Source: Leptolyngbyaceae cyanobacterium clean351
GTDB taxonomy: Bacteria > Cyanobacteriota > Cyanobacteriia > DAIDHW01
Length of the DNA stretch: 64,000 nucleotides
Assembly (NCBI GenBank): GCA_027451865.1
Contig: DAIDHW010000001.1
Coordinates: 1,063,329-1,127,328, forward strand
Direction of reading: 5' to 3'
The notes beneath the pieces are model-generated. The model had not been told where the DNA came from, searched no databases, and saw nothing but the letters and a program-made list of their open reading frames with translations. The position numbers and the translations under genes are program-made. Positions 8,587-21,608 of the stretch are shown in pieces (positions within the stretch are counted from its first letter, which is position 1; the number at the start of each line of letters is the position of its first letter).

Positions 8587-9867
8587 ATGGCGGACAAAGT
8601 AGCCCCTGACCGCGCAAAGCCAGGCTGCCAACTTCCCAGCTCCATCTCCTGGAATATTCGCCAGAGCCTCAAAACTGAGACCATTTGGTATCAAACGGTG
8701 GTGGGCCTAGGAGAAGCTTTGCAGTTGCACCTGTGCTTAGCCTACGCCTACGGTGAAGATGAGTTGTGCCTAGTTGATCGTTATCCCCAGGGGACTGGGG
8801 AAGCCCCTCCCCTGGCGGAGGATCTCCTAACGCAGATTATCTACACCGGTGAGTCAGTCCTCGAGGTAGCTCCAGGGGAGCTCGTCGTCACCACCCGCCA
8901 CCAAAACCAGCCCAACGGCTTGATTGTACTTTTTCGGCCCGGCCGGCCCTGGGACCCAGACGAGCAGGCTGTAGTTCAAGACCTAGCTGACCAAGTGGGA
9001 ACAGCGATTGCCCATGCTACCCTGTTTGCTGATGTGCAACACTTAGCAGCGGACCTGCAGTTAGCTAACCTCGAGCTGCGCCAGAAACAGCTAGAGCTAG
9101 AGGAGGCCCGGCGGCAAGCCGAAGTGGCCTCACGTCTAAAAAGTGAGTTCTTAGCCAACACCTCCCACGAACTGCGCACGCCCCTAAACGGAATCTTGGG
9201 ATTCCTGAAGCTGATCCTAGACGGCATGGCGGAAGACCCGGCTGAGCAGCGGGAATTTATCCAGGAAGCCTATCGCTCTTCCCTGCACCTGCTAAACATC
9301 ATCAATGACATCCTAGACATCGCCAGGATTGAAGCTGGCAAGCTCAAGATCGACCTAGACCCGGTATCGCTGCGAGAACTATTTACTGATGTGGAAAACT
9401 TTGTGCACCTCAGTGCCCAGCAAAAAAACCTCCAGTTACTGGTCAGCCTCCCTCCCACCCATGACGAGATCATGGTCTACGGCAACTATCAACGTCTCCT
9501 GCAGGTGATGCTAAACCTGGTGGGTAACGCCATCAAATTTACCGATCAAGGACGAGTAGAAGTGACGGCGGAGGTAGTCCCCCCCCACCCTAGCACCCCA
9601 GGCACCCCAGGAGTGGTACAAATTAAAATTCTAGATACAGGAATTGGCGTATCCCTCGAGAAGCAGGACCGCCTATTTCAGTCCTTCAGTCAAATTGACG
9701 GCTCCCGCACACGGCAGCACGGGGGTACGGGCCTGGGGCTAGTAATTTCCCAACGGCTAGTAGAGGCTATGGGAGGGGTAGTCAAGTTCTACAGCATGGG
9801 AGAGGGTCTAGGGTCTACGGTCACTTTTACTATCCCCCTTTACCAAAGACCGATCATCTCTTATTAG
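8587..9867 (+). CDS. GAF-HisKA-HATPase sensor histidine kinase
   Basis: H-box [17 protein letters not shown]-box [11 protein letters not shown]1 DTGIG, G2 GGTGLGL. N-terminal GAF-like region. Confidence 0.93.
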
Positions 9868-9870
9868 GTA

Positions 9871-10467
9871 TTAGGAAGCGTACATTGCCCGCAAGACCTC
9901 AGCTGGGTCAACCCAATCACCACCGTACTTAAGACCCCAGTGCAGGTGAGGTCCGGTAGTCCAGCCAGTCATGCCTACTCGACCGATGCGGGCTCCCGTG
10001 GGTACATCCTCTCCTTCAGCGATCGCAATACTCCCGGCTTTGTCCACTAGATAACGACGGCCGTCAATCACTTCGACCCCCCCCTGCATATGACAGTAGC
10101 GGTGTTGCCACTCCCCAGACTGAAGGACAATCATCGTGCCGCAACCAGTGTCATCGGAAACCACCAATACTTTACCCCCCCACCAGTTGCGAATATAACT
10201 CCCTAGGGGAGCGGCGATATCCAAGCCAGCATGGAACTCCTCCCCACTCCCCAGGGGGTTGGGCCGGTAGCCAAAGCCTGAGGTGTAGGCTTGGAAGTTT
10301 TCCACCGGGAAGGAAGCCTCCTTCCACAGGGAGTTAGAAGTAACTTGTCGCTGTGCCACCTGTTGGCCAAAGGCTGGGTGCAGGGAGAAAACCGCTACAC
10401 TGGTCAGACAAAAGACAGCTAGGAACAATGCCAGTCGGCGCTTAAGTCGTCTGGTAAGAGTAATCAT
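9871..10467 (-). CDS. Secreted M23 family metallopeptidase
   Basis: Signal peptide, HAGLDIA (HxxxD), TGPHLHW (HxH). Confidence 0.92.
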   Translation of the reverse strand: MITLTRRLKRRLALFLAVFCLTSVAVFSLHPAFGQQVAQRQVTSNSLWKEASFPVENFQAYTSGFGYRPNPLGSGEEFHAGLDIAAPLGSYIRNWWGGKVLVVSDDTGCGTMIVLQSGEWQHRYCHMQGGVEVIDGRRYLVDKAGSIAIAEGEDVPTGARIGRVGMTGWTTGPHLHWGLKYGGDWVDPAEVLRAMYAS

Positions 10468-10579
10468 GGTGAATCGGTGGTGTAGTTATTAAACAGTCCT
10501 CCAGTCTCGACTAGTCTAAGCCATAGCCGGCCAATCCCGGCAACCCCAATTCGGTCATTACCTACAGGTCGGAATCTCC

Positions 10580-12844
10580 ATGGCCACTGTTTATAGCCCA
10601 GCCACCTCCCCCCCGAAACAAAGACTCAGAGTCCCCAAGAAGCCCAAAAAAGAATACCTTTGGGTGATGCCTCACTCCGTAGAGTTCTTCACGGCACTGG
10701 CTAATTTCTTCAGGCCTGTCAGCTTAATAGCAAAATTGCTGGCCTTGTCCCTGATTGTAGTGGTGCCCGTGGGGGTGACCCTGTTTTTTAAAAATTTGCA
10801 AATAATCTTAACGGAAACAAAGTTTATCTACCAGGGGGGTATACCCTTCCTGCTACATATATTCATAAACATGTTTCTGATCGGCTTTTTTGTCAAGTTT
10901 GTCAAAAGTACAGTCTGTACCTCCTTTGGCGGCAAAGTTAAGGTTTTTGCTCTGACTTTAACCTTGGGGTTTCACCCCCGCTTCTACGTCGACCGCAAGG
11001 CGATCCTCCGGCTCCCTTGGCGTTACCGCATCATCACCTTCACTACCCCCATGTTATTTCGCTTGGGGATTATTTCCTATGCCGTCTTAATCTGGTACTG
11101 GACTCGGAACACCGGTATTGGCCTGACGGGCTCCCTAGGTACCTTTGCGCTCCTGTTAGCTCACTCCTGCTTCTTTGAGCTGCTGTTTGAGTCTACCCCC
11201 GTAGCCTCGGTGGATGGTTATTACCTATTGATCACCAGTCTAGGAATCCCGACTAACTCCCTGATGCGCACCTTTGAGGCGTTTGGCTTGATGATCAGTG
11301 GCCGTCCCCTGCCCCCTCACTTCAATTGGCGCAAGCGGCTCACCACTACTACTATCACCGTGCTCTCGGTGATTTTCCACCTATTGCTTGTGGGTGCCTT
11401 GAGCTTTCTGTGGGCCCACGGTTTTAATGACACCTACCCCGGCGTCTTGGGAGAGGGCTCAGAATATTTGTTCTATGTAATTTTCGTTACTATTGCCTTC
11501 TACCGACCGGTTAAACGGCGCGTTAAGGCCTACTGGCAGGAAAATCCCTGGCAGGGTCCAGCCTGGTTGCTGGTGGCAGGGCCGGTAGCGGTGATGACAG
11601 GGTTAGGCGTGCTTTTATTTTTGCCCTTCACCTACCAGCCCAGCGGCGATGTGCAACTGTTTGCTCCCCAAGTGGTGTCCATCCAAGCCCAGATTTCCGG
11701 AGTAGTCACCCAGGTCAACTACCCCGGGGGCACCACCCAGGTGATTCCAGCCAGCACCGTCTTAGGTACTATCACTTCTGTTGAAGTTAACAACTCCATA
11801 CTCACGACCGAAGATGCTATCCGCAAAGGCCACTCGGATATCAAGACCCTAAAATCCGAGTTGGCGCTGCTGCGCGATATCCCCCGCCCCGAGGATGTAG
11901 CAGTGGCTCAGCAGAAGGTTGCGATAGCTAACCAGGCGGTGGCTGTGGCTCAAGAGGGAGTGGCTGTGGCTGCAGCCCAACTCCGAACGGACCAGCAAAA
12001 ATCCCAGTTTAGTAGCCGCGAAGCAGCCCGTTATCAGCAGCTCTACCGGCGGGGGGTAGTATCCCTGCAGACTGAGGAGAACTTTACCAAGCAAGCTGAG
12101 GACGACCATGACCAGGTGCTTGTGGACCTAGAAGCAGTTAGTCAAGCCCAGCAGACCGTAGCCCAAAGTCAGGAAGTTTTGGCGGTGGCCAAGGGCAAAT
12201 TGCAAGAGGTACTCAGCGGTGCTGACCCGGCGGCCATTGCCCGTAAAGCCTCCCAGATGGAGGCAGCCGAGAAGAATCTGGCAAGGTTGCAGCAGGTATC
12301 TGCTTACTATCGCCAGCAGCAGTCCCAAGGGAAACTACTTATGCCCATCACCGGGCAGCTGGTCACCCCCTACCTCAATCAGAAGGTAGGCATTTACCTG
12401 AAGCAGGGTGAGACCTTCGCCTTGGCCTCCCCCATGGAGCATCTGCGCGCGGAAATGCAAGTGATCCAAACTGACAGCGCCATGGTTGAGCCGGGTCAAC
12501 TAGTACAGATTCACCTAATGGAGTTCCCAGATACTACGTTCCTTGGTCAAGTAGAGGCTCTGCAACCGCAGTTTTCTGAAGCTACTAACGAGTTGATCAT
12601 CCCCACCGATAGTTCAAGCGCTGATGACCCCCAGACTCCGCTCCAATATCTTTCACCTATTCCCTCCACTGACCCGGCTCGGGTACTGCGGGCGACCATT
12701 CGCCTGCATCCGGGCTACCCTGACTTGAAAGCTGGGATGAGTGGCTATGCCAGGATTCAGGGACCGATCCGGCCCTTTGGGGTAGCGCTCACCCACCCCT
12801 TCACCACCTTCTGGACCGTGGAGGGCTGGTCTTGGATGCCCTAG
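10580..12844 (+). CDS. Degenerate M50-like membrane domain fused to an HlyD-family periplasmic adaptor
   Basis: Multi-TM N-half with the M50-like scaffold (VCTSFGGKV...GFHPRFYVD; TPVASVDGYYLL). C-half has lipoyl halves (SIQAQISGVVTQV; LLMPITGQLV), a long coiled coil, and LKAGMSGYARI. Confidence 0.8.
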   Translation: MATVYSPATSPPKQRLRVPKKPKKEYLWVMPHSVEFFTALANFFRPVSLIAKLLALSLIVVVPVGVTLFFKNLQIILTETKFIYQGGIPFLLHIFINMFLIGFFVKFVKSTVCTSFGGKVKVFALTLTLGFHPRFYVDRKAILRLPWRYRIITFTTPMLFRLGIISYAVLIWYWTRNTGIGLTGSLGTFALLLAHSCFFELLFESTPVASVDGYYLLITSLGIPTNSLMRTFEAFGLMISGRPLPPHFNWRKRLTTTTITVLSVIFHLLLVGALSFLWAHGFNDTYPGVLGEGSEYLFYVIFVTIAFYRPVKRRVKAYWQENPWQGPAWLLVAGPVAVMTGLGVLLFLPFTYQPSGDVQLFAPQVVSIQAQISGVVTQVNYPGGTTQVIPASTVLGTITSVEVNNSILTTEDAIRKGHSDIKTLKSELALLRDIPRPEDVAVAQQKVAIANQAVAVAQEGVAVAAAQLRTDQQKSQFSSREAARYQQLYRRGVVSLQTEENFTKQAEDDHDQVLVDLEAVSQAQQTVAQSQEVLAVAKGKLQEVLSGADPAAIARKASQMEAAEKNLARLQQVSAYYRQQQSQGKLLMPITGQLVTPYLNQKVGIYLKQGETFALASPMEHLRAEMQVIQTDSAMVEPGQLVQIHLMEFPDTTFLGQVEALQPQFSEATNELIIPTDSSSADDPQTPLQYLSPIPSTDPARVLRATIRLHPGYPDLKAGMSGYARIQGPIRPFGVALTHPFTTFWTVEGWSWMP

Positions 12845-14115
12845 AAATTCACGGTCCCTGGTTTTACGCCGATCTGCGGGGGGTAGACTGGACTGGGCAG
12901 GACCGAGCCGGTGCCTGGTTGAGTGGAGCCAACCTCACCCGGGCCCAATTGGTGGGGGCAGACCTGCAGCAGGCCAACTTGGTAGGGGCTAGCTTACAGG
13001 CGGCAAACCTAGGGCAGGCGAAGCTCCAGGGAGCTAATCTGGTCCAGGCCAACCTCAGCGGTGCCAATCTCCAAGGAGCAGACCTGACAGGCGCCTACCT
13101 AGGAGAAACTAACTTCACGGCCGCCCAGCTAGGAGGAGCTAATCTCCAGGACACAGACCCTAACACTGGTAATTTCCATGGTGCCCTGGCGGACTGCCAG
13201 ACTCGCTTTCCCCCTGGCTTTATCCCCCCTGAGGCCTACTGGTTTCGACCAGGCTGCAGCTACCAGGGGTTCAACCTCCGGGGTCTGGACCTATCGCATC
13301 TGGACTTAACTGGGGTAGACCTGGCGGGGGCCTTCTGGGATGACTCCACTCGCCTACCCCCGGGGGTTTGCTGCCCGGGAGTCTGGCTGGGGCCGGGGGC
13401 TCAGCTGGCGGGTGCAAACTTGGGGGGCTTGAACCTGCAGGGGGCGGACCTAAGGGGGGCGGACTTGACTGGGGCGAAGCTAGTAGGCGCCGACTTAACG
13501 GGGGCAATCTTGGAGCGGGCGCGTCTCCTGCAGGCTGACTTGACGGGGGCAATCTTGGATCACACCCGGTTCCGGGGGGCAGTTTACGCTCCTGAAACCA
13601 GATTTCCCGAGGGCTTTGTGCCACTGGAGGCCTGCTGCATTAAGCCGGGGGCGGACCTGGCGGGGGTGGACTTAAGGGGGGCGGATCTGCGGCGGTTAGA
13701 CCTGCGGCGGGTGAACCTGCAGGGGGCCCAACTGGCGGGAGTACAGCTAGTAGGAGCTGTGTACAACCAACAGACTCGGTTCCCGGCTGACTTTACACCC
13801 GAGGGGGCCTACTGTCTGGGGCCGGGGGTTCAGCTGGCGGGGGCGGACCTTGGGGGACTAGACCTGCGGGGGGTGAATCTGAGCAGGGCTGACCTGACGG
13901 GAGCTAACCTAACTGGAACTACCTTGACGGGAGCTAACCTAACTGGAGCTACCTTGGCGGGAGCTAACCTAACTGGAGCTACCTTGACGGGAGCCCTATT
14001 TACCCAAGCCGACCTGAGCCACGCCAATCTGACTGGGGCCAGGGTTAAGGGAGCGGTGTGGGGTCAAGCCATCCTGACTGGGGCGGTCTTACCTACCGCT
14101 GAGCTTGGGAAGTGA
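12832..14115 (+). CDS. Pentapeptide repeat protein, modular
   Basis: A(D/N)LxG pentapeptide runs separated by four TR(F/L)Px(G/D) linkers. Start overlaps the upstream stop by 13 bp. Confidence 0.9.
   Translation: MDALEIHGPWFYADLRGVDWTGQDRAGAWLSGANLTRAQLVGADLQQANLVGASLQAANLGQAKLQGANLVQANLSGANLQGADLTGAYLGETNFTAAQLGGANLQDTDPNTGNFHGALADCQTRFPPGFIPPEAYWFRPGCSYQGFNLRGLDLSHLDLTGVDLAGAFWDDSTRLPPGVCCPGVWLGPGAQLAGANLGGLNLQGADLRGADLTGAKLVGADLTGAILERARLLQADLTGAILDHTRFRGAVYAPETRFPEGFVPLEACCIKPGADLAGVDLRGADLRRLDLRRVNLQGAQLAGVQLVGAVYNQQTRFPADFTPEGAYCLGPGVQLAGADLGGLDLRGVNLSRADLTGANLTGTTLTGANLTGATLAGANLTGATLTGALFTQADLSHANLTGARVKGAVWGQAILTGAVLPTAELGK
13891..13994 (+). repeat. 30-bp tandem repeat (~3.4 copies) encoding (T/D)LTGANLTG(A/T)
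   Basis: accttgacgggagctaacctaactggagct recurs with 1-2 substitutions per copy. Confidence 0.9.
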
Positions 14116-14118
14116 GGG

Positions 14119-14646
14119 TTATTCGGGGGTCGAGGTAATCACCTCGTTGGGACGGACAATCCGCTCCTGCCAGCGGAACCCCCGGCGGACCACGTGGGTG
14201 ATGGTTTGACTAGGCAGGTCAGGGCGGACCTCCCGCTCCACTACTCGGCAGGTATGGGGGTCTGGGTCCGAGGGAATTTCCAGGGGTACTACTCCACGCT
14301 TCTCTAAAAGGGTTAGGAGTTTAGAGCGCAAGCCCCCGAGGGAGCGGGGCAGGCGTCTTAAGGCAGGTGGCGCAGGGTCAGGGTTACGGGACCAGTAATC
14401 AATTAAGGGCTCAAGGCTATCGAATACTTCTAGGATTTCGAGGATCAGTTGCTCTTTTTCCGCTTGAGCATCCTTTTGGGCTTCCCGGAGGGCTCTTTCA
14501 CAGGTGGCGATTTGCTTGAGCTGATTTTGTAGGGATGCTTGCAGTTGCTCTTTGATCTGCGAGTCGAGGAGAAAAGCCCCGGAGGGTTGGGTAGGGGGTG
14601 GGTCGCAGCGGCGCCCTCTCAGGGCCTGTAACCATTTTTGAATCAT
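14119..14646 (-). CDS. GrpE-like nucleotide exchange factor
   Basis: Coiled coil, LILEILEVFDSLE helix, C-terminal beta domain DPDPHTCRVVE...TITHVVRRGFRWQERIVRPNEVIT resembling the GrpE signature. Confidence 0.8.
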   Translation of the reverse strand: MIQKWLQALRGRRCDPPPTQPSGAFLLDSQIKEQLQASLQNQLKQIATCERALREAQKDAQAEKEQLILEILEVFDSLEPLIDYWSRNPDPAPPALRRLPRSLGGLRSKLLTLLEKRGVVPLEIPSDPDPHTCRVVEREVRPDLPSQTITHVVRRGFRWQERIVRPNEVITSTPE

Positions 14647-14648
14647 AA

Positions 14649-15059
14649 TTATTCACTAAGTTTGATCAGGAGTTGCAGTTCTTCCGTCAGGACAGATTGT
14701 TCATCAACAACATCCTTTTCAGGTACATAGATGTTAGCCAATTCTGCAGCTAGGCTGTCAAACTCGGGCAAGATCTCCAGAAGAGTCTCCGGAACCGGGA
14801 TGGTTTGGGAGGTGAGCTTTTCCCGCCGGAACTTGGTCACGGCCGGTAAGACCGGAAACAACAAGTCCGCGATCAACCGCTTTTGGGGGTCTAGAAGAGA
14901 CTTTTGAGCCTCGCCGATAGCCTGGGGAGAGTAGCGCTTTTGCTTGAGAGCCGACATTTGGGCCCTGACGATTTCCTGCTTGTCGGCACTCCGTGACAGC
15001 CCCAATATATAGTAGGGGTTGGTTATGGGGGAGGAAACAGATACAGAATTTTCTGCCAT
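14649..15059 (-). CDS. J-domain-like protein lacking the HPD motif
   Basis: NPYYILGLSRSADKQEIVRA...RYSPQAIGEAQKSLLDPQKR aligns by eye to J-domain helices. Start set at ATG 15059 (alternative 15116). Confidence 0.75.
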   Translation of the reverse strand: MAENSVSVSSPITNPYYILGLSRSADKQEIVRAQMSALKQKRYSPQAIGEAQKSLLDPQKRLIADLLFPVLPAVTKFRREKLTSQTIPVPETLLEILPEFDSLAAELANIYVPEKDVVDEQSVLTEELQLLIKLSE

Positions 15060-15174
15060 TGTGGTTGATTTGGAAATCACTAGGTTGGTTCTGATGACAC
15101 GACTATCAGTGGGCATTGTGTCTGACTGAATTGCCCCATCAACATTACTTAGAGCTGATTCTTAGGGACTCGTA

Positions 15175-15333: not shown

Positions 15334-18300
15334 TCATTCCAGATCGTTTATATTTTTCCATAGTACTATCAGATCAAGAAAACTAGGATTACCAGAACTC
15401 ACCATTTCTAGAGCAATCTTTCTTAGTAGTTCCGCTAGAGCGTGTTTGAGTCTGGGGCTGCCGGAGGCTAGGGCCCTTTGGACGGCCTGTTGGATACTGC
15501 CCCTTGAAACCAAGGCCAGCAGGTTCTGCCACTCCCGATTTATTTGCTCAAGCTCTATGTTTTGCTTAACCAGACGAATGAGCTCAACAATCATGGGGTT
15601 ATTAGGGTCAATACTCCTGAGATGATTGAGTCTTGTTAGTCCTTCCTCTGCAGATATCTTCTCCTTAGCTAAGTCATCACGAATTTTATCAACGCTACTG
15701 CCAACATAAAGTACTTTCGCCCCAGGGGTATGCAGTAATTCATACCAAAACTTTCCCAGTTCAAGCCTTTCCTCCAGGGATCTAAGACCCTGACTAAGCT
15801 TTCCTAGTAATTCGTTGAGAGTGTTATTCCACCCGGGATTGGCATTGATCTCAGACTTTATTTTCTCGAGTACGGGGAGTGATGAACGCCAATTCCCAGC
15901 CCTTAATTGGTTGCAACCCCAGTGGTAGTTGACTAGGCTGAGGGCAAATTTAGTCACCGGTGTATTAGGGGTGGCCTTAGGCTTAATTTCCATGGCCCTT
16001 GGCACGTTGTCTTGAAGGCAAGCTGCCACGGCTACCCCCCAGGAACTATAGAGGGCCTTATAGACCTTGTCGTCATAACTCTCGCGGCCGGTGAAATTGG
16101 TAGCCCAGTCCCGGTTAAACAACCGCAGGTATAGTCCTGGGGAAAGCAGGATCGAGTTAGACCTAGGTTCGGGCCGGGGGGACATTTCCTGAACAGACAT
16201 CTCCAGGTTGTACATATCCTTGATTCGGAGGTCATTTGAGGCAAGCACCAGCTCCCCTAGGCGACTTTTCATAGTCTCGGATATTTCCGGATAGTTAACC
16301 CCTGATGGCAGCCAGGGAATATTTTTGAGAGATGGGTCTTGATCTAGATTTAGTAAGACGGTGGACAGGATGGGAATCAGGTCCATCAAGGTGCTAGGCG
16401 TAGTAATGGCCCGGTAGTAGGCAGCCACCATCAAGTTATGTAGGGTAACCGGAGTGCGAAGGGATTCTGTTTGCCAGGCCGACCAGACATGAGTAAATAT
16501 TGTCGACCAGCTCTGACTCTGCCACAGTTGCTGCTCCAACCCGGGCTTAATATGGTTCTCGAGGTTGTACTTGACGTTTGGGTAGGCGGATAGGACACTG
16601 AGGTTTTTTAGGGAAATGGTTTGAGCCGCCTGCAGATCTCCCGAATCCACCTTATTTTCGATCTCACGGACAAGATGTATTGCTTGGTTTTTGTCCAGGA
16701 ATGTCTGGAGGGAATTGAGTTTATTTTTCACTGCAGGGGCCTGGCAGTGACGCCACTGTTCAACGGCCTTAGGTAATAAGCCAACCTTAATATAGGCTAA
16801 GCCAAGGAGGTAATATTTTAGCTCCAGATCTTGAATGGGCCCCTGGGCTAGGTGCTCAACCTCTTGCACCAGCTCCTCAGTGTCTTCTCGGGTGAGTTTT
16901 GCGTCGATTAACTGCTTCACGCGGATAACTAACCGGCGCCTTGCCACCTGCTGGGCCTTGGCAGGAGTAGGAGCCAGTCGTTTATACCCTACTTGGGCAG
17001 CGCTCCAGTCCCCGGCTGCCTCAGCTGACAGAGCAGTTGCTAACTCCTGCTCAAACTTCCCCCCGCAAATCTGCAGGGTATCTTGTAACTCCCCCAGTAG
17101 GGCCTGGCCTGCGGGTCTGGGAAAGTAATTTTGAGCTAATTGCAATCTGCGAATCGCTAGCTGATATCGCCGCTTCTCGGTCAGGTCCCGCACATTGTCG
17201 ATGACCTTCTCGTAGGCCTCCTCGCGCTCAATCTGCCGGGGGAGTTCCTGAAGAATTACCCCTAGGCCTGAGCTCTCCACCCAGTCTAGGCGCCCCGCGG
17301 CTTTGGCTAAGTCGTAGGCTTTTTGGTAGAGTAGGCGGCTGTCCTTAAAAAACAGTTGCTTGTACTTCTGGTCGGCCTGGGATTTGAGGTCTGCAAATTC
17401 CTGTTCCTGCCGAGCCAAACCCGCCCTAAAGTCGGCGATTAACTGGTGACCATCAGGGCGGTCAAAGCTGCCGATGAGCTTTTCTAGGAGGGTGAGGGCT
17501 TCTTTGTACCTGGACTGCCGCGCTAATTTGTACCTGGACTGCCGCGCTAAATCCCGAGCCTGGGATAAACCTGCCTCGTAGGCCTCCTCCCGCTCAATCT
17601 GCCGGGGGAGTTCCTGAAGAATTGCCCCCAGGCCTGAGCTCTCCACCCAATCCAGGCGCCCCGCAGCTTTGGCTAAGTCGTAGGCTTTTTGGTAGAGTAG
17701 GCGGCTGTCCTTAAAAAACAGTTGCTTGTACTTCTGGTCAGCCTGGGATTTGAGGTCTGCAAATTCCTGCTCCTGCCGAGCCAAACCCGCCCTAAAGTCG
17801 GCGATTAACTGGTGACCATCAGGGCGGTCAAAGCTGCCGATGAGCTTTTCCAGGAGGGTGAGGGCTTCCTTGTACTTGGATTGCCACGCTAAACCCCGAG
17901 CCTGGGATAAACCTGCCTCGTAGGCCTCCTCCCGCTCAATCTGCCGGGGGAGTTCCTGAAGAATTACTCCCAGGTCTGAGCTCTCCACCCAATCCAGGCG
18001 CCCCGCGGCTTTGGCTAAGTCGTAGGCTTTTTGGTAGAGTAGGCGACTGTCCTTAAAAAACAGTTGCTTGTACTTCTGGTCAGCCTGGGATTTGAGGGCT
18101 TGGAATTCCTGCTCCTGCCGAGCCAGACTTGATCTAAAGTCAGCGATTAACTGGCGAACATCAGGGCGGTCAAAGCTGCCAATTAGCTTTTCTAGGAGGG
18201 TGAGGGCTTCTTGGTACCTGGACTGCCGCGCTAAACCCCGAGCCTGGGATAAAGCTGCCTCGTAGGCCTCCTCCCGCTCAATCTGCTGGGGGAGTTCCTT

Positions 18301-18549
18301 GAGAGTTACCCCTAGGCCTGAGCTCTCCACCCAGTCTAGGCGCCCCGCGGCTTTGGCTAAGTCGTAGGCTTTTTGGTACTTTTGCAGGCCCTGCTTAAAC
18401 CGTGACCGCTCACAGAGCTGATCCCCGAGGCTTCTTAATTCCTGGAACTCCTTGAGGCAAGCTTTGGTCCGCGCCGCTTTGGCCTTTTTTAGTTGCTGGA
18501 TAACTTGATAGACAACCAGGACGACCGCAGCAACTGCAATCAGGTACAT
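15334..18549 (-). CDS. Membrane-anchored large alpha-helical (TPR-like) protein with 114-aa tandem repeats
   Basis: 1071 aa. N-terminal hydrophobic helix followed by a Lys/Arg-rich stretch, repeated YQKAYDLAKAAGRLDWVESS units, and TPR-like segments (YYLLGLAYIKVGLLPKAVEQW). RBS ggag upstream. Confidence 0.85.
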   Translation of the reverse strand: MYLIAVAAVVLVVYQVIQQLKKAKAARTKACLKEFQELRSLGDQLCERSRFKQGLQKYQKAYDLAKAAGRLDWVESSGLGVTLKELPQQIEREEAYEAALSQARGLARQSRYQEALTLLEKLIGSFDRPDVRQLIADFRSSLARQEQEFQALKSQADQKYKQLFFKDSRLLYQKAYDLAKAAGRLDWVESSDLGVILQELPRQIEREEAYEAGLSQARGLAWQSKYKEALTLLEKLIGSFDRPDGHQLIADFRAGLARQEQEFADLKSQADQKYKQLFFKDSRLLYQKAYDLAKAAGRLDWVESSGLGAILQELPRQIEREEAYEAGLSQARDLARQSRYKLARQSRYKEALTLLEKLIGSFDRPDGHQLIADFRAGLARQEQEFADLKSQADQKYKQLFFKDSRLLYQKAYDLAKAAGRLDWVESSGLGVILQELPRQIEREEAYEKVIDNVRDLTEKRRYQLAIRRLQLAQNYFPRPAGQALLGELQDTLQICGGKFEQELATALSAEAAGDWSAAQVGYKRLAPTPAKAQQVARRRLVIRVKQLIDAKLTREDTEELVQEVEHLAQGPIQDLELKYYLLGLAYIKVGLLPKAVEQWRHCQAPAVKNKLNSLQTFLDKNQAIHLVREIENKVDSGDLQAAQTISLKNLSVLSAYPNVKYNLENHIKPGLEQQLWQSQSWSTIFTHVWSAWQTESLRTPVTLHNLMVAAYYRAITTPSTLMDLIPILSTVLLNLDQDPSLKNIPWLPSGVNYPEISETMKSRLGELVLASNDLRIKDMYNLEMSVQEMSPRPEPRSNSILLSPGLYLRLFNRDWATNFTGRESYDDKVYKALYSSWGVAVAACLQDNVPRAMEIKPKATPNTPVTKFALSLVNYHWGCNQLRAGNWRSSLPVLEKIKSEINANPGWNNTLNELLGKLSQGLRSLEERLELGKFWYELLHTPGAKVLYVGSSVDKIRDDLAKEKISAEEGLTRLNHLRSIDPNNPMIVELIRLVKQNIELEQINREWQNLLALVSRGSIQQAVQRALASGSPRLKHALAELLRKIALEMVSSGNPSFLDLIVLWKNINDLE
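17209..18378 (-). repeat. Intragenic tandem repeat, unit 342 bp (342, 342, 366 plus a ~120 bp partial)
   Basis: The anchor ctttggctaagtcgtaggctttttggta starts at 17301, 17667, 18009 and 18351. Confidence 0.97.
17503..17550 (-). repeat. Perfect 24-bp tandem duplication (LARQSRYK x2) nested in one repeat unit
   Basis: tttgtacctggactgccgcgctaa at 17503-17526 and 17527-17550. Confidence 0.97.
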
Positions 18550-18566: not shown

Positions 18567-19064
18567 TTAGGGGCGAGCGGGGGGCAGAAGATTATGGGTG
18601 ATCGGGATGACTAGCTTTTGGCCAATCTGTAGGCGACCGGGGTCTGGTTGGAGTTGGGGGTTGGCCTGATAGATGGCCACGAAGGTGGTTAACTGCCCAA
18701 ATTTGGCCGCGATGGCACTCAGGTTATCCCCGGGCTGGACTAGGTAAACCACCTGGGGGGGGGCAAGTTTGCGGGCGGGGGGGCGGGGGGCAACGGTCGG
18801 AGGAGAGACGTGACTTACCTGATGGGAAATCACGACTGCCAGGGGAGCCGGGGGGACCCGGAGGCGCAGTGTAGCCCACACCGCCAGGACCACTGCTAGA
18901 GGGAGCACTACCCAGGGGGTCAGGTTAGTCCTGGTAAGGACGGGGGGGGGTGCAAACTGGGGCAACTGAGCCAGACTAACCAGGGCTGTCAAGTCAGCAT
19001 CACAGTTAGGGCAGTGGGTGTGCTCTACCTGCTGATAGCCGCACACTGGACAGTCAAGGCTCAT
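18567..19064 (-). CDS. Zinc-ribbon / transmembrane / LysM protein
   Basis: CPVC...CPNC, TM WVVLPLAVVLAVWATL, Pro-rich linker, LysM YLVQPGDNLSAIAAKF...IYQANPQL...LQIGQKLVIP. ATGA overlap with the Hsp70 gene. Confidence 0.88.
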   Translation of the reverse strand: MSLDCPVCGYQQVEHTHCPNCDADLTALVSLAQLPQFAPPPVLTRTNLTPWVVLPLAVVLAVWATLRLRVPPAPLAVVISHQVSHVSPPTVAPRPPARKLAPPQVVYLVQPGDNLSAIAAKFGQLTTFVAIYQANPQLQPDPGRLQIGQKLVIPITHNLLPPARP

Positions 19065-21298
19065 CTCCTAATCCCCTTCTGAACTACTTGGCCTGGAGAG
19101 GTTTGGCTGAAGCTAGGTTCTAGTTCTCGGCACAGCTCCAGGAGCGGCTGCGCATCCCCAGCGTTAAAGGCTCTCATGGCCTGCTCAAACCGGAACTCTA
19201 ACTGTTGAGCCCGGGCCGGGTCGCTCCCCTCCACCCTCGCAATCCCCTCGAGGCACAGTACGGGGAGGTGAGCCTCCGGGGCTAGAGAGTCGATTTCCCG
19301 CTCTACATCTTGAGCCAGTTTTTCGGTCCCTCCCCAATCCCGTCGCTCCTGGGCAGCCTCGAGCTGGGTTTGGAGCTTGCGCAACCGGTCCTGCTGGGGG
19401 GACCCAATCAGCCGGTCACTCAGGTCGAGGTAGTTTCGAGTGCGTCTGGCCCAAAAAGCTGCTTCAATTCGAGCATCAGAGAGCTCCCACTCCAATTTGC
19501 CGTACTCATCACGGGCTTTTTGCAGCATGTCGGGGCGCTCTCGACCGCTCTCATCAATAATCTGACTGGCGGCCTTGATCACCGCCGCCGCCATTTCAGC
19601 CGCCTTCTGGGCCCCAAAACTGGTGAGCCGTCCCTCTTCATTGAGCTCATCAATAAAGCTTTCAAGATCCCGGTAGACCTTCTCGTCAGCTTGACCCCGG
19701 GAAAACCGGCAACTTACCTTGGAGGATGGGTCCTGCTTGAGGCTGGCAGTGATCTGTAGGGGGCTACTCTGCTCATCTAGTTCTAGGAGCACGACCACGG
19801 CGGTGCCAGCGGGATGATTATCTTCTAGTCCTAGCCACAGCTGCCCTACCTCCTCCTCCACCGTAACCTGGTCAAGATTACTGCGCACCTCATCGGGACT
19901 GAGGAACTTTAACTGTACTATTCTTTGGTCATCCGCCACGGTACGGAAGGTTTTCTGCTGGCGCACCGGCAGAATATCCCCTTTACTAATCACCTTTTCC
20001 ATACTCCCATCAGCCAGCTGGATGAAGTAGTCGCGGGAGACGGTGGAGGTCTTATCTACCATCCCAGCTGCCACGATCGCGGCTCCCTCCGCCACAGCGT
20101 ACATGGGCCGGGGGTGGCTAACTACCTTGTCGCTGCCAAAGGCGGCCCGGACCTGCTGTTGAACGTAGGGGATTTGGGAGGAACCCCCCACCAACAGCAC
20201 CGCATCCACCAGGTCCGGAGTATATTCGGAAATATTGATCGCCTCGTGGCAGATCTGAATCGTCCGCTGCACTTGGGCTGCAATCATCTCCTCAAGCCGG
20301 GTGCGGGTCAGCTCTACCTGCACAGGGATGATCATGCCGGCTTCCTTCAGGGGTGAATCGGGGTTTACCAGAACTTTGGTCTGGGTGCTAAGGTCGATTT
20401 TGGCTTTTTCAGCTGCCCTCCTCAGGTCCGCCTGAAACCGCACCCGGTCGTGGAAGGGCATCTGGGTAATTACCTGGTCCACGGCGGCTGCATTTTCCCA
20501 GCCCTCCTCTTCGGCAATTTTTTGCTTCACGTAGTTGACTATCTGTAAGTCAATGTCATCTCCTCCCAGCCACAGGTCCCCAGCCTTGCCCTGCTCAAGA
20601 AATTGGGTGCCGGCGCAGGTGATCACCGAGGCATCAAAGGTACCTCCACCGTAGTCGTACACTAGGATGGTTTTGACCTCAGCACTATCGGGGCTAAATC
20701 CGTAGGAAATTGCTGCCGCCGTCGGTTCCGCTAGCAATTCTAGGGGTGTAATTCCCGCTAACAAAGCCGCATCCCGGGTGGCCGATCGTTGCTTGTCATT
20801 GAAGTAAGCCGGGATAGTAATCACCGCCTGGTCAATCACATCCCCTCGGTAACCCGGCCGCTCCCGCAAGGCCGCTTGGCCGTTAGCTACTACCTGCTTG
20901 AGAATGGCCGCGGAGATTTCCTCCGGCCGGTACTCCCGTTGGGGCTGGCCCGCAAAAAATACTACTAAGCTATTCTCAGTGCCATCCCTGGGAGCGGCAA
21001 TTTTGTAGCCTACCCGGGCTTTCTGGGTAGCCACCGCCTCTTCCCCAAACCCCCGGCCCATTAGACGCTTGATCGAGGTAATCACGTTCCCGGGGTCACT
21101 CCCTAGGTAATTGTAGGCGGTTTCCCCCACCACTAGTTCAGGCTTCTCCTTGAGCCAGGCCACCATCGAACGGGTCAGCTTACGCTCCGGCACTGAGTTA
21201 GTGGCGGCAGTCACCACCTCGGGGTCCTGGTCAATCACAAACTTGAAAGCGCCGACGGAATTAGTGGTGCCGAGATCGATACCGATCGATTTACCCAT
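19061..21298 (-). CDS. Atypical Hsp70-family protein
   Basis: GIDLGTTNS, SIKRLMGR, TIPAYFND, EPTAAA, DYGGGTFD, LGGDDID, LLVGGSSQIP. C-terminal half is unlike DnaK. Start at ATG 21298. Confidence 0.93.
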   Translation of the reverse strand: MGKSIGIDLGTTNSVGAFKFVIDQDPEVVTAATNSVPERKLTRSMVAWLKEKPELVVGETAYNYLGSDPGNVITSIKRLMGRGFGEEAVATQKARVGYKIAAPRDGTENSLVVFFAGQPQREYRPEEISAAILKQVVANGQAALRERPGYRGDVIDQAVITIPAYFNDKQRSATRDAALLAGITPLELLAEPTAAAISYGFSPDSAEVKTILVYDYGGGTFDASVITCAGTQFLEQGKAGDLWLGGDDIDLQIVNYVKQKIAEEEGWENAAAVDQVITQMPFHDRVRFQADLRRAAEKAKIDLSTQTKVLVNPDSPLKEAGMIIPVQVELTRTRLEEMIAAQVQRTIQICHEAINISEYTPDLVDAVLLVGGSSQIPYVQQQVRAAFGSDKVVSHPRPMYAVAEGAAIVAAGMVDKTSTVSRDYFIQLADGSMEKVISKGDILPVRQQKTFRTVADDQRIVQLKFLSPDEVRSNLDQVTVEEEVGQLWLGLEDNHPAGTAVVVLLELDEQSSPLQITASLKQDPSSKVSCRFSRGQADEKVYRDLESFIDELNEEGRLTSFGAQKAAEMAAAVIKAASQIIDESGRERPDMLQKARDEYGKLEWELSDARIEAAFWARRTRNYLDLSDRLIGSPQQDRLRKLQTQLEAAQERRDWGGTEKLAQDVEREIDSLAPEAHLPVLCLEGIARVEGSDPARAQQLEFRFEQAMRAFNAGDAQPLLELCRELEPSFSQTSPGQVVQKGIRR

Positions 21299-21608
21299 GG
21301 TGTTTAGCGTGGTGGGAATGGCAGGGGTCAATACCCCACCGGGGGGAATTGCCCTGTATTATAACCCTCCCCCCCGGAATGTGTACATAAAGCCTAGGAT
21401 GACAAATGTATTTACCAGTAGGGGCATCCTGCCCGCTGTAATTAAGGCGTAGCAAGAGTTAACAAAACCTGAATCGGCCGGGAGAAGTCTGTTATATCTA
21501 GGATGCACCGGGTCAAGGCCTTGGACACCACCCCTGACCCGGCGGCCCGTGGCTCCCCTCTAGCTGGACCTATAACCCTCTAGGATGTCCTATTTACTTT
21601 ACTAGTTC

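Follow-up and report, generated by a model that had tools for sequence, protein, structure and literature searches.

A probable lineage-specific amplification of a conserved module in a predicted membrane-anchored solenoid protein of a cyanobacterial Hsp70 cassette

Introduction

The genome of the Leptolyngbyaceae cyanobacterium clean351 (assembly GCA_027451865.1) contains a gene for a 1071-amino-acid (aa) protein, predicted to be a membrane-anchored alpha-solenoid of the tetratricopeptide repeat (TPR)-like kind, in which a unit of 114 aa is repeated in tandem. The gene lies in a 64,000-nucleotide (nt) stretch of contig DAIDHW010000001.1 (positions 1,063,329 to 1,127,328), hereafter the window, whose own numbering is used throughout. 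The locus raises the questions of whether the repeat is real, how it arose and what the additional copies do for the protein. The first-pass annotation of the window had read the array as the product of ongoing unequal crossover or gene conversion, giving a variable-length helical spacer that would act as a molecular ruler or as a diversifying recognition region. We regard a different explanation as probable, with moderate confidence: that the array is a genuine in-frame, lineage-specific amplification of a conserved module, and that its copies are working modules which most likely multiply a docking surface and lengthen the scaffold only incidentally.

Results

Structure of the array

Tandem Repeats Finder (TRF) called an array with a period of 342 nt at 17528-18378 (2.5 copies, 92% matches, score 1464). 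The call ends at 17528 because of a 24-nt insert, and the repeat continues on to 17209. When read in frame on the minus strand, within the 1071-aa open reading frame (ORF) at 15334-18549, the array occupies 17209-18378, about 1.17 kb, and consists of three full units and one partial unit of 120 nt, with the motif YQKAYDLAKAAGRLDWVESS at the start of each (aa 58, 172, 286 and 408). These borders, and the three full 114-aa units plus a partial, are exactly as first annotated. The most diverged full copy is U1 (18037-18378, aa 58-171, 342 nt), which is followed by U2 (17695-18036, aa 172-285, 342 nt) and U3 (17329-17694, aa 286-407). U3 measures 366 nt including the insert, which is a perfect tandem micro-duplication at 17503-17550 that encodes LARQSRYK twice (TRF, 2.0 copies, 100% match). 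The partial copy, U4 (17209-17328, aa 408-447), comprises the first 120 nt of the unit, referred to below as the 'head', and is followed by an abrupt change to KVIDNVRDLTEKRRYQ. All of these elements, and those of the same gene described below, are on the minus strand.

Older sequence related to the unit lies on either side of the array. Upstream of U1, a diverged element, preA (18379-18453, aa 33-57, KEFQELRSLGDQLCERSRFKQGLQK), is homologous to the last 25 aa of each unit ('pre'). Downstream of U4 lies an ancestral 'tail', tailD (17059-17208, aa 448-497, with FPRPAG), which is the orthologue of the single FPRxDG unit of related proteins and is only anciently related to the tails of U1-U3. A whole-genome BLAST search (2.48 Mb) with U2 found matches at only the four places within the array, which is also the top-scoring tandem repeat of the genome. 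Three other long-period tandem arrays were seen in the genome, at C1:763258-769767, C16:3346-4293 and C2:142232-143941, with periods of about 290-297, 219-297 and 108 nt, respectively, and 71-94% matches; these presumably encode repeat-domain proteins.

Unit copy number in the protein family

An exhaustive phmmer/HMMER search of 1.84 billion protein representatives returned 93 matches, 54 of them at E<1e-30, and these 54 align with the window protein from aa ~300-580 through ~1050. Their source names are 'hypothetical protein', 'tetratricopeptide repeat protein' and a pattern-derived 'peptidase M, neutral zinc metallopeptidase site'. The family is small and cyanobacterial, with proteins of about 800 aa: in full length, most members have 760-915 aa and one has 985 aa, and the window protein, with 1071 aa, is the longest. 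When 44 members were aligned, conservation proved good over the C-terminal ~500 aa, with seven invariant columns; in the N-terminal half the most conserved part is the unit itself, where positions such as A465 and R478 are nearly invariant. The consensus of the unit in the relatives reads ...RxxFxxLxxxAxxxxxxxxFKxAL...ExxYExxLxxAxxLAxxGxFxxAxxxLxxALxxFPRxDGxxLL, and in the alignment this one unit is matched by the end of U3 together with the U4 head and the ancestral tail. Ahead of the column of aa 408, the relatives have ~160-180 residues and the window protein 407. The variable length that had been envisaged for this region is borne out across the family, where the N-terminal portion before the last head ranges from 104 to 407 aa. 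One alignment, of the N-terminal fragment with full-length homologues, was visibly stretched over the C-terminal columns and was discarded.

A profile of the unit, built without the window protein, found one unit in each relative and four, each over its full length, in the window protein (aa 33-139, 147-252, 261-374 and 383-493), of which the first takes in preA. The family profile detected the gene in 29 of 401 genomes of the phylum, belonging to 24 of 156 genera, with the window genome (G000) at E=8e-189, and the three extra hits at the unit position were confined to G000 among the 29 carriers. Thus the copy number of the unit, which the first-pass annotation had proposed to compare in related strains, is not fixed: it is four in the window genome, as read from one 48-contig draft assembly, and one in each of the other 28 carrier genomes sampled; its relatives in the comparison are related to it only at the level of the class. 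At the level of these sequences, the comparison shows an amplification from one to four modules that is private to this lineage.

Duplications of other kinds were seen elsewhere in the family. Protein P0019 (985 aa), from another lineage, carries an independent expansion at residues 208-403, with three to four diverged copies of a ~50-aa 'pre+head' sub-module, together with N-terminal TM (transmembrane) segments. The proteins of loci L006, L007 and L008 (genomes G219, G073 and G132; ~890-930 aa) match profile positions 731-814 twice; here a C-terminal module is duplicated in tandem, a module duplication of a second kind that is independent of the first.

Divergence, selection and reliability of the assembly

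Over 342 nt, U1 and U2 are 90.9% identical, with synonymous (dS) and non-synonymous (dN) divergences of 0.24 and 0.059; U1 and U3 are 91.5% identical (dS 0.22, dN 0.055), and U2 and U3, with the 24-nt insert removed, 96.5% identical (dS 0.10, dN 0.019). Any pair of heads is 95-96% identical over 120 nt. It had been noted that the copies are nearly identical even at synonymous sites; with dS of 0.10-0.24 and identities of 91-96.5%, this was an overstatement. The dN/dS ratio among the units is 0.20-0.25, and the non-synonymous share is below the neutral expectation in all three unit pairs (binomial p 4e-4, 6e-4 and 8e-3), which argues for purifying rather than diversifying selection on the copies. 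The consensus residues of the family unit are kept in all four copies. Taken together, these substitution patterns show the copies to have been under purifying selection since the duplication, with retention of the family-conserved residues, and they leave little of the suggestion that the array is a diversifying recognition region.

An assembly artefact, arising from mis-joined strain variants or from over-expansion of the repeat, would be conceivable in a genome that is a 48-contig draft. The longest exact repeat inside the array is, however, 80 nt, and the copies differ at 12-31 sites, so that ordinary reads can tell them apart. The array keeps the reading frame with an exact period of 342 nt and lies inside a 1.2-Mb contig, and its borders coincide with protein-module boundaries and with the old homologous flanks. 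An artefact is for these reasons very improbable.

A further possibility is that the expansion is neutral or nearly neutral and was fixed by drift in an isolated lineage, with constraint limited to folding and the avoidance of aggregation. On this view the solenoid tolerates extra repeats and nothing important is changed by them. The other members of the family work with one unit, their N-terminal regions vary as widely in length as described above, and other modules are duplicated in P0019 and in G073, G132 and G219, all of which would fit a neutral origin. Against it, the low dN/dS has been maintained over a dS of up to 0.24, the family-wide motif residues are retained in every copy, and the ORF has stayed intact despite the opportunity for recombinational deletion. 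We therefore consider neutral expansion unlikely, but an explanation to be taken seriously.

Origin of the array

The first-pass annotation had described the copies as mosaic, as the outer copies U1 and U4 have the variants cgcctagactgg and caggcctagggg in common and the inner copies U2 and U3 carry cgcctggattgg. These variants are indeed present. The split between outer and inner copies, at head positions 42, 45 and 66, is the sole parsimony-informative split of the head, and at the remaining variable positions of the head it is U1 alone that differs. No conflict arises between the site patterns and the tree ((U2,U3),U1,U4); recombination is therefore not required, and the shared ancestry of U2 and U3 explains what had been taken for mosaicism. 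Outside the heads there is a hint of exchange. At the 31 sites where U1 and U2 differ, U3 agrees with U2 at 24 and with U1 at seven, and five of these seven cluster where the 24-nt duplication lies, within a run of six informative sites at unit nt 151-186 (permutation p 0.013; two-breakpoint maximum chi-square p 0.04). The U1-like patch in U3 may represent one conversion tract, or may reflect clustered mutation in U2.

In the phase of the family unit, the region reads preA-head-tail, pre-head-tail, pre-head-tail, pre-head-tailD. The tail and tailD align with a score of 48, compared with 25 +/- 4.6 for shuffled sequences, of which one in 2000 reaches 48, and the local alignment score of pre with preA was reached by 35 of 2000 shuffles. 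The sequence from the first to the last head is 91-96.5% identical between copies, with the same 40-aa head at both ends. A block of high identity bounded by old, diverged homologues is what unequal crossover between the two heads of a former array of two units would be expected to leave. Concerted evolution in general, where copies at the edges are not homogenised, gives the same picture. Of the two processes originally put forward, unequal crossover thus agrees with the structure of the array, and gene conversion receives weak support (p ~0.01-0.04). We envisage an older two-unit arrangement with two homologous heads 342 nt apart, between which unequal homologous recombination or replication slippage would have added units. 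U2 and U3 would be the latest pair and the 24-nt slippage in U3 the youngest event, and occasional gene conversion may have kept the copies similar.

Membrane anchor, fold and domain matches

The N-terminal TM helix (aa 2-20, 18490-18546) has a Kyte-Doolittle 19-residue mean of 1.99, is the only segment above 1.6 and is followed by the Lys/Arg-rich stretch KKAKAARTK. The placement of the repeats just after the membrane anchor was thus correct, as the array starts at aa 58. Since there is a single N-terminal TM helix with a positive C-terminal flank (positive-inside rule) and the predicted partners, Hsp70 and a GrpE-like protein, are cytoplasmic, the rest of the protein after the TM helix is predicted to be cytoplasmic. 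The conserved C-terminal core (aa 561-1071, 15337-16869) contains the seven invariant residues of the family, G583, H704, N705, P804, A843, L882 and W935.

AlphaFold2 (AF2), supplied with the family alignment, gave an all-helical model with a mean predicted local distance difference test (pLDDT) of 80.9, and of more than 90 for much of the C-terminal core. Each unit is predicted to form helices of ~17, 5, 30, 15 and 33 residues. Foldseek searches against the PDB with the model matched TPR scaffolds (Ski3, IFT-A TPR subunits, Ctr9, TFIIIC, Naa15, APC subunits and P58IPK) at probabilities of 0.95-1.0; the TM-scores were low (~0.1), as expected for long flexible superhelices. When the window protein was compared with curated TPR profiles, only TPR_10 was matched, at 16.5 bits and below the cut-off of 27.5. 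Among the 44 family members, Pfam TPR_2 matches 23 and TPR_19 matches 16 (E<=0.001), in the region right after the unit.

Other domain matches were considered and set aside. PRTRC_E (PF19556) scored 34.6 bits, above its cut-off of 26; the match is nevertheless read as spurious, a compositional one inflated by the repeats, because it occurs in one of the 44 members only, is confined to the amplified units and has no single significant stretch. Membership of a PRTRC system was rejected as well, the cassette having no ParB or ThiF genes. Matches to Csn2, YscG and JetA all fall within the repeat, whose four copies inflate them, and no other family member shows them. The 'peptidase M zinc site' is the source name of one homologue; the window protein has NYHWGCNQ at the place of YHEGC in several relatives, no HExxH was seen in the family consensus, and the protein was not taken for a peptidase. 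Finally, a LysM-like N-terminal segment noticed by eye in the G030 homologue had no Pfam match, and we argue no fusion from it.

The position of the array between the TM anchor and the conserved core, the all-helical units with helices of 30-33 residues, the length variation of the region across the family, and a repeat structure that is prone to recombination and has undergone a 24-nt slippage would all suit a variable-length spacer. As a molecular ruler, such a rigid helical extension would set the distance from the inner membrane and a peptidoglycan anchor to the C-terminal core with its Hsp70, and its copy number would vary between strains. The unit is, however, no featureless linker, being the most conserved part of the N-terminal half, and a ruler function appears to us rather improbable.

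The five-gene Hsp70 cassette

Five tightly packed genes of the same orientation, all on the minus strand, make up the cassette, with the solenoid gene in third place. The first encodes a divergent Hsp70 paralogue (19061-21331; Pfam HSP70, 300 bits), and the second a protein with a Zn ribbon, a TM segment and a LysM domain (18567-19064; Pfam LysM, 40.4 bits), whose gene adjoins that of the Hsp70 in other loci too. Downstream of the solenoid gene lie genes for a cassette-conserved J-like protein without HPD (14649-15116), which has a weak Pfam DnaJ match, and for a divergent GrpE-like protein (14119-14646; Pfam GrpE, 53.4 bits). The cassette Hsp70 scores 291 bits against NCBIfam DnaK models with cut-offs of 648-1019 and is ~35% identical to the other DnaKs of the genome, which encodes elsewhere three ordinary DnaK paralogues and a canonical grpE-dnaK pair. 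With its Hsp70 below the equivalog cut-off and the canonical grpE encoded elsewhere, the cassette was not assigned to the canonical DnaK/DnaK1 system.

Of 20 other loci, 19 contain all five genes, and 18 of these also keep their order. In L039 (G207), ~1.9 kb is inserted between the solenoid and J-like genes (9328-11273) of an otherwise intact cassette; in L041 (G085, of another class), the Zn-ribbon-LysM gene is upstream of the Hsp70 gene, not downstream; and no more than two of the five were detected in L032. At G338:C2:1218204-1219431 the solenoid gene survives as a decayed copy interrupted by several in-frame stops, and the cassette can therefore be lost by pseudogenisation. The J-like protein lacks HPD family-wide, as observed at the window locus, in L002 (3532-4935) and in L003 (3088-3456): the motif reads YSPQ in the window and (F/Y)PID in G006 and G030. 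A fusion in G006 adds to it a TM segment and a pair of repeated C-terminal modules, with a SPOR match that is marginal (21 bits, at the cut-off). In the window, a convergent pentapeptide-repeat gene and divergent plus-strand genes border the cassette. A 30-nt tandem repeat in the pentapeptide-repeat gene (13888-13994, plus strand; 3.3 copies, 95% matches) is a recent expansion of pentapeptide units.

The extreme C-terminus of the cassette Hsp70, ...LPSxxIxTGLTR, is conserved across loci. In nearly all loci of the set L024-L043 the tail reads (Q/D)(E/D)LP(S/T)xx(I/V)xTG(L/I)(T/S)R, and in the window (19061-19200, minus strand) it reads ...SPGQVVQKGIRR, ending ...VQKGIRR. Such a conserved terminus might serve a partner, for example the TPR-like solenoid, as a docking peptide.

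The genes flanking the cassette differ between loci. The first-pass annotation had considered the repeat typical of conflict or surface systems, and the array could on that account be a region of a defence system that recognises variable invaders or surface ligands and diversifies by recombination and positive selection. A few features would agree: the cassette is patchy in its distribution, is self-contained and has flanks that are not conserved; two of the ten flanking genes examined encode DNA methyltransferases; and there is the possible conversion tract in U3. The remaining annotated flanking genes are mostly for housekeeping functions, with no consistent defence-island context, and none of the five proteins carries an effector-like domain. 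A comparison of the five proteins with PADLOC-DB 2.0 gave only sub-threshold, repeat-inflated matches (Csn2, JetA and DrmMI), none beyond noise and with no significant single stretch in the solenoid, and no link was found in the literature. As the repeats are, moreover, predicted to be cytoplasmic rather than surface-exposed and evolve with a dN/dS well below one, a role in conflict is scarcely credible.

Discussion

The preferred reading, a conserved module with an FxRxDG motif amplified in one lineage and kept at work in each copy, would have the extra copies lie on the cytoplasmic side, past the membrane anchor and ahead of the conserved C-terminal core. The copies would be neither junk nor a hypervariable surface, and would most likely multiply a docking surface for a partner encoded in the cassette, for which the Hsp70 paralogue with its conserved C-terminal tail, the J-like protein and the Zn ribbon are candidates. 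A scaffold longer by roughly 10 nm would be a by-product. We favour such an increase in valency over pure spacing because the unit carries the most conserved N-terminal motif of the family.

Several points weigh against this reading, or limit how far it reaches. The docking idea draws on conservation and on an analogy with TPR co-chaperones; the pLDDT of the AF2 model is only ~70-77 in the repeat region; and purifying selection would be equally expected of a structural spacer that needs only to fold. As regards the copy number in the organism itself, look-ups of sequencing runs gave no match to the array or to the unique part of the gene. Close relatives were likewise not encountered: a word-based protein search matched the window protein alone, scans with back-translated peptides of genome and metagenome contig collections found no close relative, and a degenerate DNA pattern for YQKAYDLAKAAG had no match in the same kinds of collection.

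As an event, the expansion has close parallels in the intragenic amplification of TPR, Sel1 and HEAT-like modules in bacteria. It resembles these in the in-frame duplication of a whole module by unequal recombination, in having the most similar copies in the interior and diverged copies at the edges, and in the tolerance of a solenoid for extra copies. In contrast to the generic 34-aa TPR, however, the unit here is long (114 aa, ~five helices) and is the single signature module of its family, and its amplification is private to one lineage of an otherwise strictly one-unit family. Surface proteins of the Alp/Rib and M-like types also have long in-frame tandem units whose number can be changed by recombination. 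In those proteins the repeats lie outside the cell and their DNA is as a rule ~100% identical, whereas the window protein has repeats of 91-96.5% identity that evolve under purifying selection and have a predicted location in the cytoplasm.

The genetic setting recalls three Hsp70-linked systems. In the TPR co-chaperones Hop/Sti1, CHIP and P58IPK, as in the cassette, a TPR-type solenoid is linked with an Hsp70, a J-type protein and a nucleotide-exchange factor; in the cassette this link is genetic. The P58IPK structures 3ieg and 2y4t are among the Foldseek matches of the window protein, and the conserved tail of the cassette Hsp70 is reminiscent of EEVD docking, by analogy only. The window protein differs in being bacterial and membrane-anchored, the tail is TG(L/I)xR rather than EEVD, and the likeness is one without shown sequence homology or identified carboxylate-clamp residues. 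In cyanobacteria, a DnaK1-DnaJ3-GrpE system couples type IV pili to polysaccharide secretion (McDonald et al. 2022, PMC9239167). It is similar to the cassette as a specialised, non-housekeeping Hsp70 system at the cell envelope, and differs from it in its locus, grpE-dnaK1-dnaJ11, with a canonical GrpE and no solenoid or LysM gene. Conflict systems built around GAP1-N2 GTPases and FNIII-repeat proteins, mainly in actinobacteria and firmicutes, also contain HSP70, GrpE and proteins fused to DnaJ or TPR (Kaur et al. 2020, PMC7159879), and share with the cassette the linkage of HSP70 and GrpE to a DnaJ/TPR component in a patchy, operon-like module. Membership of these systems was rejected, as all five cassette genes were assigned and none is a TRAFAC GTPase, an FNIII protein or effector-associated. 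The window expansion is thus a new instance of a well-known type of event, in an uncharacterised, conserved Hsp70 cassette. As to that cassette, no literature on the five genes together was found, and only other Hsp70 systems turned up.

A more specific form of the docking idea may be put forward as speculation that we hold to be decidedly doubtful. The amplified module might be the docking site for the TG(L/I)xR-COOH tail of the cassette's own Hsp70, as a bacterial analogue of the TPR-EEVD pair, and the cassette would then be a peptidoglycan-tethered Hsp70 machine whose stoichiometry and membrane reach are tuned by the copy number of the unit. If this were true, the present lineage would recruit about four Hsp70s per scaffold instead of one.

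Taken alone, the expansion is a textbook in-frame amplification of a module in a repeat protein. Through it, however, the 114-aa FPRxDG unit stands out as a module that is autonomous and open to selection, in an uncharacterised family found in company with a dedicated Hsp70, a J-like and a GrpE-like protein and a membrane protein that binds peptidoglycan. The expansion also provides a natural one-copy versus four-copy series with which to ask what the module binds. The cassette is of more interest than the repeat, and the larger question is the role of an envelope-linked Hsp70 cassette in cyanobacteria.

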